From a virus (Duplodnaviria > Heunggongvirae > Uroviricota > Caudoviricetes), in IMG/VR virus record IMGVR_UViG_2671180473_000005: 4,567 bases of DNA; one strand, 5' to 3'. Of this stretch, positions 65 to 4,567 are shown piece by piece (position 1 is the stretch's first letter; each line of letters opens with the position of its first letter). The position numbers were made by a program, and so were the translations under genes. Under the pieces are notes generated by a model. It did not search any database. It had not been told where the DNA came from and saw nothing but the letters and a program-made list of their open reading frames with translations.

Positions 65-418
65 TTAAAAAAAGAACAAATGGTAGTGTCCGCTATTGCC
101 AGTACACCTCAATTGCTCTGCGGCTTCGCTCAGAGCTGGCGTATGTTCCCGGCCTACTGATTCACACAGGTAATCAACGAAACCGGACACCAGTTTTCGT
201 TCGCGAGGCGTGATCGCCCCACCGACCGGAGTCCAGTAATCGAAACCCAGTTGCAGGAGTTTGAAAAAACGCTTGTGGAATGCGTAGTTACACACACGCT
301 TAAAGTCTGCGTGTATCCACTCACCTATTTTGATTTGATGCAGAAAATCGCAACTCTCCGGCGTCGCCGGGAGAAGTAATCCGGAAGAGGTTTGTTTGAC
401 CAGTTGTATATGTGCCAT
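65..418 (-). CDS. hypothetical prophage protein, 117 aa from the ATG; probably truncated or frameshifted at its 3' end
   Basis: Minus-strand ORF. ATG at 416-418 is preceded by GGAG about 7 nt upstream; the track ORF 65..460 starts at a TTG overlapping the upstream stop. The protein ends ...GHYHLFFF then TAA at 65-67, immediately after a 7-nt homopolymer (plus A-run 67-73). A neighbouring frame stays open to the window edge. No family recognised. Confidence 0.5.
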   Translation of the reverse strand: MAHIQLVKQTSSGLLLPATPESCDFLHQIKIGEWIHADFKRVCNYAFHKRFFKLLQLGFDYWTPVGGAITPRERKLVSGFVDYLCESVGREHTPALSEAAEQLRCTGNSGHYHLFFF

Positions 419-456
419 CGGCTTTCTCCGGTGGCACGGTGTTACACAGCAGGAGT

Positions 457-744
457 TCAATCCTGCTCAAGATTGTAGATGAGTTTATTCTTCAGCAAAA
501 GCAGAAAACCAGCCTTAAAACCAATCTCTTTCAAAACCCGTAATGATGTGACAAATTCGTCCTCACGCAAAATAAAACCGTCCGTCAGAAGTCCATTACA
601 AAAATAAAATAACACAGCACCGCTCTTCCTTTGTTGAGATTGCAAACATCTAATGCGGCAATGGCTGACAATCGCTCCATTCTCAACGCGCACAGCATAG
701 AGGCCATTTTCACTAAAAATTTCACGCAATTCTTCGATTTTCAT
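457..744 (-). CDS. hypothetical small protein, 95 aa
   Basis: Minus-strand ORF with ATG at 742-744 and an AAGGA Shine-Dalgarno about 8 nt upstream (minus sequence tggaaggattctgaagATG). Coding region is AT-rich, about 40 percent GC by hand count over 481-660. No family recognised. Confidence 0.5.
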   Translation of the reverse strand: MKIEELREIFSENGLYAVRVENGAIVSHCRIRCLQSQQRKSGAVLFYFCNGLLTDGFILREDEFVTSLRVLKEIGFKAGFLLLLKNKLIYNLEQD

Positions 745-825
745 CTTCAGAATCCTTCCAGATAAATAGCTCTCCCCTGTTCGGGGTCCATCCCTCTTCT
801 CCCTGCGCGCTACTTAAGTGAGTCG

Positions 826-853
826 ATTCTATCTGCGAAGGTGCGCGAATCAA
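826..853 (-). promoter_or_regulatory. candidate sigma70 promoter for the 457-744 gene
   Basis: Minus strand reads TTGATT (853-848), a 16-nt spacer, then TAGAAT (831-826), about 80 nt upstream of the ATG at 744. Pattern match only. Confidence 0.3.
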
Positions 854-868
854 ATTCACCGGAAATAA

Positions 869-916
869 ACAACAAAAAACCCGCCGAAACGCTGAGAGAT
901 CACAGCGATGGGCGGG
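869..916 (-). terminator. intrinsic terminator downstream of hok
   Basis: On the minus-strand transcript: GC stem cccgcc(916-911) pairing with ggcggg(885-880), inner helix cgcug/cagcg, followed directly by UUUUUUGUUGUUU (879-867). It lies about 80-125 nt 3' of the hok stop. Confidence 0.5.
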
Positions 917-957
917 TTAAGTGCGGGTGCGTTGAGGATGCCTGACACATCAGAGGT

Positions 958-985
958 GGGCGGGGATGGGATCAGCTCCCCGCCC
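958..985 (-). other. GC-rich stem-loop in the hok 3' UTR
   Basis: Perfect 9-bp inverted repeat gggcgggga (958-966) / tccccgccc (977-985) with a 10-nt loop, starting 9 nt after the hok stop. No U-tract follows, so it is probably a stabilising or fold-back element rather than a terminator. Confidence 0.35.
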
Positions 986-993
986 GGTCACTC

Positions 994-1149
994 TTACTTC
1001 CTGGATTCGTAGTCTACGAAGACAGCGACCTCCGTCTGGCCGGTTCGGATTCGTACCTCACAGAGGTCTTTCCTCGTTACCAGTGCCGTCACTATGACGG
1101 TTAAACAGATGACGATCAGGGCGATTAACATCGCCTTTTGCTGCTTCAT
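994..1149 (-). CDS. hok: Hok family type I toxin (membrane-depolarising host-killing peptide), 51 aa
   Basis: ATG at 1147-1149, TAA at 994-996. Translation MKQQKAMLIALIVICLTVIVTALVTRKDLCEVRIRTGQTEVAVFVDYESRK has the Hok transmembrane helix and conserved LCE..R..G..EVA motif and closely matches HokD/HokC-type chromosomal Hok as recalled. An alternative frame is open from the gap edge to 1058, consistent with an overlapping mok-like frame. Confidence 0.9.
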   Translation of the reverse strand: MKQQKAMLIALIVICLTVIVTALVTRKDLCEVRIRTGQTEVAVFVDYESRK

Positions 1150-1159
1150 AGCCTGCTTC

Positions 1160-1389
1160 NNNNNNNNNNNNNNNNNNNNNNNNNNNNNNNNNNNNNNNNN
1201 NNNNNNNNNNNNNNNNNNNNNNNNNNNNNNNNNNNNNNNNNNNNNNNNNNNNNNNNNNNNNNNNNNNNNNNNNNNNNNNNNNNNNNNNNNNNNNNNNNNN
1301 NNNNNNNNNNNNNNNNNNNNNNNNNNNNNNNNNNNNNNNNNNNNNNNNNNNNNNNNNNNNNNNNNNNNNNNNNNNNNNNNNNNNNNNNN
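1160..1389. other. 230-nt run of N (assembly gap or masked sequence)
   Basis: Directly visible. 230 is not a multiple of 3, so any ORF drawn across it is artefactual. Confidence 1.
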
Positions 1390-2034
1390 GATAAGAGGGC
1401 GTCCCTGAGATTTGCGGTGTAGATTGGTATCGCGCAGAGAATACACACAGCCACAATATTCCTGCTGATAGAATTTTTCGCGCTTGCTGATTTCAATCAT
1501 ACGGGACGAGCCGCCCTGCTTGCGCCAGTTATAATCCCAGTACACCATGCCCGGATAATGCGCGACGGCTCGCCGCCCACAGTCGTTAACCTGCTGCATA
1601 TTTTTCCAGCGTGAAATGCCCAGTGAACTGCTGATCACACTGAAACCATTTTCAGCGGCGTACAGCGCTGTCCGCTCAAAACGCATGTCAAAACACATGG
1701 TGCAACGGATCCCTCGTTCGGGCTCCCATTCCATTCCTTTGGCTCGTTCAAACCAGTTGTCTGTGTCGTAATCAGCATCAATAAACGGCACGCCGTGTTG
1801 TTCAGCAAAGCGAATATTCTCATCCTTACGAATTAAATACTCTTTCTGAGGATGAATGTTCGGGTTGTAGAAAAAGATGGTGTAGTCGATTCCCGAGGCC
1901 TGAAGCGCCTCCATCACCTCACCGGAACATGGAGCACAGCAAGAGTGCAGTAGTAGTTTGTTTGCCCCGTTTGGGAGCTCCAATTTGGGCCGTTTGAAAT
2001 CAGCAACTGTCATAAATATGTTTATTGGGGTCAT
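1390..2034 (-). CDS. queH: QueH/DUF208 family epoxyqueuosine reductase-like protein; 3' end lost in the N gap
   Basis: 215 codons visible from ATG 2032-2034 (alternative ATG 2011-2013) to the gap edge. Carries the motifs recalled for the family: [37 protein letters not shown]. About 25 residues precede the LLLH motif, and neither ATG has a recognisable Shine-Dalgarno. Confidence 0.8.
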
Positions 2035-2181
2035 AAAAATATCAAAGAGTGTAGCATTAGAACGGGGCTATCGGAAACAGATGTGTGACTGCTCCCCGCC
2101 CTTTCGGGTGGTCTCCTGATGATTTGAGGGTGCAGAAATCCCTCCGGTTAAGGATTAAATTTTTAACAGTGCTAAATTTAA

Positions 2182-2538
2182 TTATTCAGTTCTGGATTTT
2201 GTCGCCCTGCGTATCCGCGCTTTCGCGTTACGCTCAATCTGTATCAGCTTTTCTATATTTCTCCGCCTTTCCTGTTCCTCCTGGCGCAATAGCCTTACAT
2301 CATCTGCCAGTCTGGTTTCTCTTTTTGCCACAGAGAGCATCCAGTCAAACGGCTCCACAACCGCACCGCAGATTTTACAGCGGACCTGACGCTCTTTTTC
2401 GTCAACCCGTACAGAGGCGTGATGGCAATATGGTCTTTCCGATGGCTCATAAAGAAAATTAACCTGATTACGAGGGTCATCCTCTTTTACCGGAAATAAA
2501 ACGATATTGCTTAACTCATCTTCTGGTTTTATTTCCAT
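2182..2538 (-). CDS. small Cys/His-motif (zinc-ribbon-like) protein with a basic coiled-coil-like C-terminus, 118 aa
   Basis: ATG at 2536-2538 is preceded by AAGGAGAGGAG. The longer track ORF starts at ATG 2593-2595, which directly abuts the upstream TGA (TGAATG), so that start is possible too. Motif PYCHHASVRVDEKERQVRCKICG, then an R/E/Q-rich tail. No family recognised. Confidence 0.55.
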   Translation of the reverse strand: MEIKPEDELSNIVLFPVKEDDPRNQVNFLYEPSERPYCHHASVRVDEKERQVRCKICGAVVEPFDWMLSVAKRETRLADDVRLLRQEEQERRRNIEKLIQIERNAKARIRRATKSRTE

Positions 2539-2595
2539 GCTCCTCTCCTTTGATGCGAATGCCAGCGGTAATTGAAGCCTGATAGCTAATTTCAT

Positions 2596-3018
2596 TCACA
2601 GTATCGCCTCCTGAAAATTACCCTGATAGAAAGCCAGTACACGCTGCATAGCTTCGCTCTTCCGGCACTCGCGACAGATTATATTCAGGCGCCTGTCGTA
2701 GCGGCGTATTTCTCCGTCAGGTAATGACCAGATAAGGTCCGGATCAACAACAACCGGTTTCCTCACCTTTACTCTCGAGAGTTTTTTGCGGGCGCTTTGC
2801 CAGTCCTTGCGAGCCTGTTCAGACGGGAATAAGCCGTAGCCAGAATTATATACATCACCACTTGCGACCAGTTCTATGCATAAGCGACCGACAGACGCAC
2901 GACTGATACCTGTTTCATCTGACAACTGCCGAATCGTGACCCGACCGTCCTGATGCACGAGTTCCACAATTCGCGTCTTCAGTTCTTCCCGCTGTTCGGG
3001 AGTAAAAGGTTTCGCCAT
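2596..3018 (-). CDS. winged-helix/HTH DNA-binding protein of the phage replication operon, 140 aa
   Basis: ATG at 3016-3018 with an AGGAGG Shine-Dalgarno 5-6 nt upstream, 14 nt after the DnaC-like stop. N-terminal segment ...VTIRQLSDETGISRASVGRLCIELVASGDVY looks like a helix-turn-helix. Exact family uncertain. Confidence 0.7.
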   Translation of the reverse strand: MAKPFTPEQREELKTRIVELVHQDGRVTIRQLSDETGISRASVGRLCIELVASGDVYNSGYGLFPSEQARKDWQSARKKLSRVKVRKPVVVDPDLIWSLPDGEIRRYDRRLNIICRECRKSEAMQRVLAFYQGNFQEAIL

Positions 3019-3032
3019 AAATCCTCCTGAAA

Positions 3033-3779
3033 CTACTTAACAACCCTCGAATGGCTAACATTCGGACGCCAGCTCTCCCAGTTAAAATTCACCCAGCGCC
3101 CGCCGTTCATGACCATGCGATCCATCACCCGCTCGCCGAGCAATGTTTTCATCACCTCATAGTTCAGGTTTGTCAGCATCCCCACGCTGCGCATCGACGC
3201 TGTCCGGCGATCAACAATCTGGTGCAGCACCACCTGCTCGTTTTTCGTCTCGCGCTGAATGCCAATTTCATCAAGAACCAGCAGATCCACTTCGCACAGC
3301 TCCCGCAAAAATTTTTCGCCTGACTGCCCGTCGTCATAGCTGGCGTGCAGGGCGCTCATAACATCAGCCACGGTAACCACAATCACTGTCTGACCGTCTT
3401 TCAGCAGGCGATTCCCGATAGCTGCCGCTAAGTGATTCTTCCCGGTACCAGGTTTTCCGCTGAACGCAAAATTTGTACACCCGGTCATCAGTTCATCGGC
3501 GATGGATTTCGCCTGGCTTAACGCGTATCGCTGGCCGTCGTTCTGCACCTGGTAATTCGCAAACGAGCATTTACGGTGCAACGGCTGGATGCCTGAGCGA
3601 TTCAGAATTTTTTCCACCCGCAACTGGCGATTCAGGCGGTTGATCTCCTCGCTACGTTTCTGGCCTTCAGCAAGTTGCCACTCGCGCCACTCCGCTACCG
3701 TTCTGAATGGGGCGGTTACATGTGGCGGGGTCAGTCGGCGGATGCGTTCCAGAACGCCGCCTGTCGCAATATTTTTCAT
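3033..3779 (-). CDS. DnaC-family AAA+ helicase loader (phage replication protein, IstB-like ATPase), 248 aa
   Basis: Walker A FSGKPGTGKNHLAAAIG and Walker B DLLVLDEIG are present. ATG at 3777-3779 lies 6 nt downstream of the stop of the initiator C-terminal frame, as expected for a replication operon. Confidence 0.9.
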   Translation of the reverse strand: MKNIATGGVLERIRRLTPPHVTAPFRTVAEWREWQLAEGQKRSEEINRLNRQLRVEKILNRSGIQPLHRKCSFANYQVQNDGQRYALSQAKSIADELMTGCTNFAFSGKPGTGKNHLAAAIGNRLLKDGQTVIVVTVADVMSALHASYDDGQSGEKFLRELCEVDLLVLDEIGIQRETKNEQVVLHQIVDRRTASMRSVGMLTNLNYEVMKTLLGERVMDRMVMNGGRWVNFNWESWRPNVSHSRVVK

Positions 3780-4133
3780 GGTCCGTTACCCCCTGAAGCC
3801 TGGCGGGATCGCACTGTCCGGCAACGAGACGGTGTTAACCTGTCGGAGCAACGTCTCAGGCCGAACACCTTTCGGCGCGAACAGGCCCTGGTATTCATTG
3901 GCGATGCTGTGTCGAATCACCTGCTCAGGTGTAAAACCCTGCTGACGGAATTTTTCCAGTTCCCGTATCGCCCCGTTAGCGCCCTGCTCCGTTCGAATCG
4001 GTTTTCGCAATGCCTGTCTGAACCGGACCCACTCATGCCAGAGTGTTTCCGGCAACCAATCGGGCAGCTCAATAGCCTCCGGCTCGAATTTTTTAGACGC
4101 TCGTTTTTGGCGAGGGGGAGATCAGTATTTAGA

Positions 4134-4154
4134 TCTTCCTCTTCCTCTTCCTCT
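4134..4154. repeat. hexanucleotide tandem repeat (TCTTCC) x3.5
   Basis: tcttcc tcttcc tcttcc tct on the plus strand. On the minus strand it encodes EEEEEE in the linker frame (RGRGRG and RKRKRK in the other two). Confidence 0.9.
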
Positions 4155-4246
4155 GGTAACGCTTTTTGATCCGTTTGTGTAACGCTGGCAGCGTTACCTT
4201 TTCGTTTCAGTTCGCGTATTTTTGTTACTCGCTCGTTTGTAACCGC
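4155..4246. repeat. cluster of dyad-symmetric TGTAACGC/GCGTTACA repeats, candidate replication-origin iterons
   Basis: Perfect 19-bp palindrome GTAACGCTG-G-CAGCGTTAC at 4179-4197; further half-site copies at 4155-4162 (ggtaacgc), 4224-4228 (gttac) and 4238-4246 (tgtaaccgc); motif cgtttgt(g)taac recurs at 4172-4183 and 4234-4243. Confidence 0.4.
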
Positions 4247-4386
4247 CCGTTTTTTTTAGAGCTTTTTCCGTTATGACGTTCAAAGTTAGGTAGAGAAAGC
4301 CCTCCGTCATTTTCGACCAGCCATCCAACCTGAATTAACGCATCAGCAAAACCAGACATAAAAGTGATGCGATCTATTGCACTTTT

Positions 4387-4407
4387 TGTAACGCCGCGAG
4401 CGTTACA
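4387..4407. repeat. second palindromic copy of the TGTAACGC half-site
   Basis: tgtaacgc (4387-4394), 5-nt spacer cgcga, gcgttaca (4400-4407): perfect 8-bp arms, inside the initiator N-terminal coding region. Confidence 0.4.
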
Positions 4408-4462
4408 ATCTGCATTACCGTCTATCATTTGTTGATCCGCCCATGCCCAGAAGCGAATAACC

Positions 4463-4567
4463 TGAGGTAGCCTGAGTTTAACGGACACTCCTTCCTGAAA
4501 TAGAATGGCATCAGAAGGAGCTAATAATGAGCAGAAAAACCCAACGTTACTCTAAAGAGTTCAAAGC
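4463..4567 (+). mobile_element. left end of an IS3-family insertion sequence (IS600-like), partial
   Basis: Sequence begins TGAGGTAGCCTGAGTTTAACGGACAC at about 4463 (IS3-family ends typically start TGA). About 64 nt later a GAAGGAG Shine-Dalgarno and ATG start an OrfA-like gene. The exact boundary is not established. Confidence 0.5.
4527..4567 (+). CDS. IS3-family transposase OrfA, N-terminus only (runs off the window)
   Basis: ATG 4527-4529 with AGGAG 6 nt upstream; translation MSRKTQRYSKEFKA matches the N-terminus of IS600-type OrfA as recalled. Confidence 0.6.
   Translation, partial: MSRKTQRYSKEFK

Follow-up and report, generated by a model that had tools for sequence, protein, structure and literature searches.

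The window, by which we mean the whole 4,567-nucleotide stretch that was analysed (Caudoviricetes; IMG/VR record IMGVR_UViG_2671180473_000005), carries all of its substantial open reading frames on the minus strand. Among them is a small toxin gene, hok, that sits between a gene for QueH and a Rem-like reading frame, giving the order QueH-hok-rem-like. The features are listed below in the direction of transcription; contents given for the masked segment are those expected from a near-identical genome.

3786 to window end, minus strand: replication-initiator-like region, from the reading-frame list and profile matches
3033-3779, minus strand: DnaC/IstB-like ATPase
2596-3018, minus strand: DUF977 protein
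2182-2538, minus strand: zinc-ribbon protein
1390-2034, minus strand: visible part of QueH (PF02677, 1.6e-65; PHROG 3217)
1160-1389, masked, minus strand read 5' to 3': expected QueH stop, hok promoter, tac GGGUGCUUGAGG, leader helices, mok ATG and Sok target
1160-1389, masked, plus strand: expected sok gene (about 71 nt) and its promoter
1150-1159, minus strand: last Shine-Dalgarno base (AAGGAG) and spacer GAAGCAGGCU, the sole readable part of the leader
994-1149, minus strand: hok toxin coding sequence, 51 aa, MKQQKAMLIALIVICLTVIVTALVTRKDLCEVRIRTGQTEVAVFVDYESRK; ATG at 1147-1149, TAA at 994-996
958-985, minus strand: GC stem-loop of 9 bp with a 10-nt loop, beginning 9 nt past the stop
925-937, minus strand: fbi (fold-back inhibition) box CCUCAACGCACCC, pairing with tac
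867-918, minus strand: predicted intrinsic terminator of the primary hok transcript, an 8-bp stem AACCCGCC/GGCGGGUU followed by a U tract
457-744, minus strand: 95-aa Rem-like reading frame, 68% identical to Rem
65-418, minus strand: DUF1367 protein

The 230 N at 1160-1389 stand in for 259 real bases and leave only 10 readable bases upstream of the hok ATG, so that a hok locus read from the window alone misses its regulatory half. Because of this N run, an Rfam search of the window itself found nothing, and the start context of hok could be judged only through near-identical genomes. We recovered the leader from E. coli FDAARGOS_944 (L002), to which the flanks of the mask (450-1159 and 1390-2100) are 100% identical; identity to FDAARGOS_943 over the same flanks is 99.9%, and the window diverges from both genomes outside about 110-4119, so that it derives from a different mosaic prophage. 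The L002 leader matches Rfam RF01794 end to end (117 bits, E 8.7e-28, gathering score 59). A promoter-like TTGATT-18-TAGAAT ends 7 nt ahead of the GGG that opens the mRNA 5' end, and a -10-like hexamer stands at an equal offset in other hok lineages. A mok ATG lies 57 nt upstream and adds an in-frame 19-codon extension, producing a 70-codon frame of which hok forms the 3' two-thirds (compare the mokW annotation in phage 933W).

On the opposite strand of L002, a predicted 71-nt Sok folds into a 15-nt single-stranded 5' tail, a long hairpin and a final UUUU (z -4.7). Its tail holds the complement of the mok AUG, and the RNA sits at the same offset as the sokW annotation of 933W. The putative sok promoter has TAACCT as its -10, 17 nt after TTGCCT. 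A simple promoter scan left this site unflagged, and we placed it by the position of 933W sokW together with the -10 mutated by Takada et al., whose promoter-less sokW construct (primer YO-421) replaced this same TAACCT hexamer. Judged from these identical genomes, then, the window should carry an Rfam-level leader, a mok frame, and a sok gene with its own promoter and fold.

The wider setting is that of a prophage. In the best-matching genome the stretch is bordered on one side by a Cro/CI-YdaT-replication module and on the other by DUF1364/DUF1133, four tRNA genes, holin and lysozyme, and from these flanking modules it belongs to the early-right operon of a lambdoid prophage, in the part equivalent to nin. 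The sequence-only reading of this DNA had spoken of a prophage nin-like region, correctly, and was also right that a QueH-like gene precedes hok here where K-12 has relBE (relB-relE-hokD-rem). Its interpretation is right for the most part, though not complete, and what it implied about novelty does not hold. Of 5426 complete E. coli genomes, 741 (about 14%; ST131 and APEC O1, for example) have the QueH-hok unit, scored as a match to 80% or more of a 731-nt probe that covers both genes, and the unit occurs in phage HannyBb as well; the hok unit (at least 80% of it) is found in 74 phage records. The identical protein in the best-matching genome is already annotated by PGAP, under the name HokD. 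That label describes the protein subfamily and not the type of locus, because QueH lies upstream and a full leader is present.

Several neighbouring features were recorded in passing. The prophage encodes a full-length QueH epoxyqueuosine reductase directly upstream of hok (L002 3928-4593); QueG is the usual E. coli enzyme for this step. The L002 prophage with QueH also holds four tRNA genes (Ile, Arg, Thr and Gly), and a phage-borne tRNA-modification gene beside tRNA genes may merit a separate look. A promoter-like TTGATT-16-TAGAAT at 826-853 (minus strand) directly follows the hok terminator and precedes the Rem-like frame (457-744); both of its hexamers are identical to those of the masked hok promoter. 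At the other end of the window, clustered inverted repeats GTAACGC/GCGTTAC at 4155-4198 and 4386-4408 fall inside the replication-initiator-like gene and look like iterons or origin repeats. The frame of that gene (3786-4567) is seemingly split, with reading frames at 4225-4488 and 3786-4055 in different phases and stops between them; its L002 counterpart is a single annotated coding sequence of 789 nt, and beyond 4120 the positions of the window and L002 cease to match one to one. Either a frameshifted pseudogene or a different mosaic module may account for the split. Small plus-strand reading frames at 841-945, 908-1012 and 966-1097 found no support and were taken as spurious.

The Hok protein itself is complete. 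As the sequence-only reading had stated, it is a full-length 51-aa product with its own start and stop, and it matches the full Pfam model PF01848 (HOK_GEF) with E 4.3e-23 and 81 bits against a cut-off of 22, as well as PHROG 251 ('MokW-like host killing', 1.3e-32). NCBIfam Hok models scored below their cut-offs; for a protein of only 51 aa that matches Pfam and PHROG models, this carries no information. The protein has the features of the family: a reading frame of ~50 aa, an N-terminal transmembrane helix and the motif TRK..LCE..R..EVA.F..YE. It shares 50 of 51 residues (98%) with HokW of 933W and Sp5, the single difference being E50R, and is 90% identical to K-12 HokD, 76% to HokC and 45% to R1 Hok. 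When we aligned it with these four and a Photorhabdus Hok, all 16 invariant columns were retained.

One codon of hok drew our attention for a separate reason. The hexamer TACGAA at the Tyr47 codon (1006-1011, minus strand) is invariant in 31 of 31 aligned hok mRNAs, the R1 type included, and in the window allele the flanks of this codon form the palindrome UUCGUAG-A-CUACGAA. According to a recent preprint (bioRxiv 10.1101/2025.08.07.668861), UACG is the context of TadA A-to-I editing that recodes Tyr to Cys in hokB, hokC, hokD and hokE mRNAs.

We then considered the 3' untranslated region, where two hairpins flank a short stretch. The first, 958-985, contains a perfect 9-bp inverted repeat (958-966/977-985, GGGCGGGGA/TCCCCGCCC) closed by a 10-nt loop, with a folding energy of -20.9 kcal/mol, confirming the perfect GC stem-loop reported from the sequence. 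When the 125-nt 3' UTR was shuffled 20,000 times, perfect stems of 9 bp or more arose in 65 cases (0.3%), and the 134-nt 3' UTR folds better than 200 of 200 shuffles (z = -4.0). The second hairpin is a terminator whose stem arms lie at 878-885 and 911-918, around a 25-nt loop with an inner 5-bp stem (-22.8 kcal/mol); after the stem the minus strand continues with UUUUUUGUUGUUU down to 867. The terminator that had been proposed at 869-916 is therefore real by both repeat finding and folding, with bounds that should read 867-918, the end at 916 falling 2 nt short. A simple terminator scan found none at the hok 3' end because the 25-nt loop exceeds its 8-nt loop limit. Relative to K-12 hokD and phage HannyBb (CCCGC-UUCG-GCGGG), the terminator loop has gained a 23-nt insertion, which creates the inner 5-bp stem; among 5426 complete E. 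coli genomes only 2 carry the full insertion variant, which is also seen in two GTDB representatives. The loop of the first hairpin is likewise 5 nt larger in the window allele than in K-12 hokD or HannyBb, a variant found in a few more genomes than the terminator insertion. Together the two enlarged loops could alter processing of the mRNA and might tune its delay.

Between these hairpins lies the element that the sequence-only reading overlooked and that is the key regulatory one, the fbi box at 925-937. Paired with the L002 5' end, the window fbi forms a 12-bp duplex with tac containing one bulged C (-19.8 kcal/mol), and this end pairing is present in the minimum free energy (MFE) structure of the 447-nt RNA (-189.6 kcal/mol, z -8.5). 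To place it in a family context, we collected 47 hok loci from species-representative genomes and aligned the 31 distinct full-length units, which come from Escherichia, Shigella, Kluyvera, Citrobacter, Pantoea, Photorhabdus and an R1-type plasmid. RNAalifold includes the tac-fbi pairing in its consensus for the 31 loci, and all 31 have the 12-bp duplex, with a mean energy of -20.4 kcal/mol versus -9.9 kcal/mol for shuffled fbi. The two partners covary: 17 sequences have U-A at pair 4 where 12 have C-G, a compensatory change, and the tac/fbi variants read GAGA/UCUC in Photorhabdus, GAGG/CCUC in E. coli and GAAG/CUUC in Citrobacter. Pairing of the two mRNA ends is a defining trait of hok mRNAs in the model summarised in PMC9841398. 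A further helix, joining the mok start region to the 3' UTR spacer (938-951), appeared in the MFE structure only and was dropped when RNAalifold did not recover it.

One 3' layout is common to every intact locus in the set: the stop codon is followed by a GC hairpin (GGCGGGGA..UCCCCGCC) and, after ~20-25 nt of spacer, by a box with complementarity to the mRNA 5' end, beyond which comes a terminator that varies between loci. The hairpin is kept at a fixed stop-codon offset in the 31 loci with 93.5% of cells paired and, because it is nearly invariant, offers little covariation of its own. Could both hairpins nonetheless be generic, either a terminator pair at a gene end or chance GC palindromes with no bearing on hok regulation? 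The one at 867-918 is a standard intrinsic terminator, and the window contains other perfect 9-bp inverted repeats (2154-2182, 4155-4198 and 4386-4408). Yet the hairpin at 958-985 is followed by ACCUCUGAUG, with no U tract; its offset from the stop codon is the same in hok loci of Escherichia, Kluyvera, Citrobacter, Pantoea and Photorhabdus; and taken together the hairpin and tac-fbi helices have 96% of cells paired versus 46-61% when their partners are slid, with a stem of this length expected by chance at the 0.3% given above. We regard a generic origin as extremely improbable.

Instead, 958-985, the homologue of the R1 stem-loop, is predicted to form and protect the 3' end of the hok mRNA once this has been processed into its translatable form. 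[quoted passage not shown] The numbering of the R1 substitutions G345A and C358A does not map exactly onto the IncFII hok copy that we retrieved; with a numbering offset of 275-277 they fall in its GC stem, which is consistent with this role. The suggestion that the two hairpins together resemble the stable 3' end of hok mRNAs thus stands for 958-985, on conservation and on R1 function; 867-918 would be the terminator of the primary transcript, located past fbi and lost on processing.

Comparison with characterized systems identifies the closest relative as hokW-sokW, with mokW, of phages 933W and Sp5/VT2-Sakai, at ~92% DNA identity over the transcription unit (87% of a 491-nt query). The 933W locus shares the tac, the in-frame mok, the position of sok and its -10, the position of the GC hairpin, and fbi. 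It differs in lying outside the nin-equivalent region, at 58.4-58.7 kb of the 61.7-kb deposited genome and among other neighbours, in lacking the CCCGC...GCGGG terminator after fbi, and in having a hairpin loop of 4-5 nt. hokW-sokW is an experimentally shown type I toxin-antitoxin system: HokW is toxic and resides in the inner membrane, and sokW counteracts it, partly via RNase III and Hfq (PMC8621323).

R1 hok/sok (parB), a plasmid-borne system with a proven role in post-segregational killing and the source of the regulatory model, has a 5' tac GGCGCUUGAGG, an RF01794 leader (87 bits) and a GC hairpin just past the stop; in the R1-type copy, fbi CUGAAGCGCC lies about 30 nt beyond the hairpin and runs directly into UUUAU, whereas the window has a spacer and a separate terminator in that place. 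The same elements in the same order, with TACGAA at Tyr47, recur in hokC (gef)/sokC, in other Escherichia chromosomal loci and in Photorhabdus hok, and the hairpin of these loci is common to the window. In this group the Sok-target hairpin is shorter, the fbi of hokC passes directly into a U run, other loci have other terminators, and Photorhabdus has compensated tac/fbi sequences of the form GGGCGC../..GCGCCC.

The K-12 Qin hokD (relF) locus shares the 3' half, namely the downstream rem, the GC hairpin, fbi and the terminator core, but there hokD comes after relB-relE and, with relE sequence in place of the leader, lacks its own promoter, tac, mok and sok. With QueH upstream and a full leader expected, the window does not carry a K-12-type hokD locus. 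It is syntenic with Qin on the rem side and, as judged from the recovered sequence, has retained the ancestral leader on the other. The K-12 relBE-hokD arrangement would accordingly be the derived, leaderless form, and QueH-hok-rem the one that keeps all controls.

Broken loci of this kind raise the question of whether the window, too, holds a decayed, non-functional relic like the K-12 hok genes, its 3' UTR hairpins mere leftovers. Besides K-12-type hokD, a Kluyvera copy in our comparison has relE for a leader and no tac, and one hokC copy has lost its 3' UTR inside the hairpin; in addition, chromosomal hok loci tested by others gave no post-segregational killing, according to bioRxiv 10.1101/2025.08.07.668861. 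In the identical L002, however, promoter, tac, mok, Sok target, sok promoter, hok, hairpin, fbi and terminator are all uninterrupted, no IS element falls within the hok unit, and the encoded Hok is one residue away from the experimentally toxic HokW. We therefore think decay very unlikely. The broken hokC copy, from E. coli ECDA1023 (L017), diverges from all the other hokC copies partway through the GC hairpin (GGCGGGGAGTGATCCC|ATAAGCGC...) and lacks fbi, a break that presumably fits the insertion-sequence disruption reported for K-12 hokC.

An intact unit is thus our reading of the locus. The hok frame, both hairpins and a tac-fbi complementarity supported by covariation are observed, and with the leader recovered from L002 the whole is very probably a hokW/hokD-type type I toxin-antitoxin unit in the early-right (nin-equivalent) region of a lambdoid E. 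coli prophage. The locus is real, intact and ordinary, and its kind has already been described.

For its working we draw on R1 and HokW, by homology with which transcript ends, processing, toxicity and biological role are assigned here. A constitutive promoter under the N mask would produce a primary hok mRNA of ~445 nt ending at the terminator (867-918). In this full-length RNA the 3' fbi (925-937) would pair with the 5' tac and close the mok start to ribosomes and to Sok alike. Slow 3'-to-5' exonucleolytic trimming would then strip away the terminator and fbi and stall at the hairpin (958-985), leaving a stable truncated mRNA of ~365-370 nt that refolds and can be translated through mok. As long as the short-lived antisense Sok (~71 nt) is supplied, it would pair with the mok start of the truncated mRNA, block mok and hok translation and trigger cleavage of the duplex; should that supply fail, Hok would be made and inserted into the inner membrane, resulting in depolarisation or lysis. 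Sequence, structure and covariation support the locked RNA, the hairpin-stopped trimming and Sok repression via mok, with the processing step itself modelled on R1 and HokW. The MFE structure of the truncated RNA has a local hairpin at its 5' end; since the tac stem that the Rfam model has there, and with it the refolding, is missing from this fold, we do not use it as evidence for that step.

What such a unit does for the prophage is most likely what HokW does for Sp5, namely to accelerate lysis and phage release upon induction. Deletion of hokW-sokW halves Sp5 release, and mitomycin C removes sokW RNA in a RecA-dependent manner; the published role is that of an aid to lysis and phage release on induction (PMC8621323). 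A different main role, along the lines suggested by the sequence-only reading, either abortive infection and superinfection defence or post-segregational retention of the prophage, would operate through the same molecular mechanism but differ in trigger and payoff. The evidence for T4 exclusion comes only from R1 hok/sok on a high-copy plasmid, which lowered the plating efficiency of T4 by 42% and its plaque size by ~85%, as cited in PMC8621323, and hok genes are ~fourfold enriched in prophages according to bioRxiv 10.1101/2025.08.07.668861. The survey in that preprint, however, reports that hok is not enriched near defence systems; PADLOC matched no defence model to Hok, QueH or the Rem-like protein at E <= 0.01; and what has been measured for HokW, the nearest homologue, is a doubling of phage release upon induction. 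We consider defence or retention unlikely as the main function, and favour lysis, with prophage retention possibly an additional role.

How induction might silence Sok is suggested by the layout of the operon. The cro/cI side, the replication genes and QueH are all co-oriented with hok, the QueH stop lies ~20 nt from the hok -35, and a simple scan (loop limit 8 nt) detected no terminator between QueH and the hok promoter. Given this co-orientation and the lack of a detected terminator, early-right transcripts would collide head-on with sok transcription. We tentatively suggest, as a possibility that we would not yet call probable, that read-through from QueH on induction shuts off Sok by transcriptional interference at the sok promoter while making 5'-extended hok RNAs, in which the tac box would no longer lie at a free 5' end. 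If true, such read-through would explain the RecA-dependent loss of sokW RNA in Sp5.

For annotation, the locus is best entered as a complete hokW-type module, comprising hok, mok, sok, tac, fbi, hairpin and terminator, and not as a lone 'HokD' reading frame; past its correct annotation the individual locus matters little. It does offer a clean natural prophage example of the 3' layout of hok mRNAs, with hairpin, fbi and terminator in succession. More generally, if read-through holds, it would explain how prophage induction triggers Hok, and prophage hok genes would then be induction-timed lysis helpers and not addiction modules.
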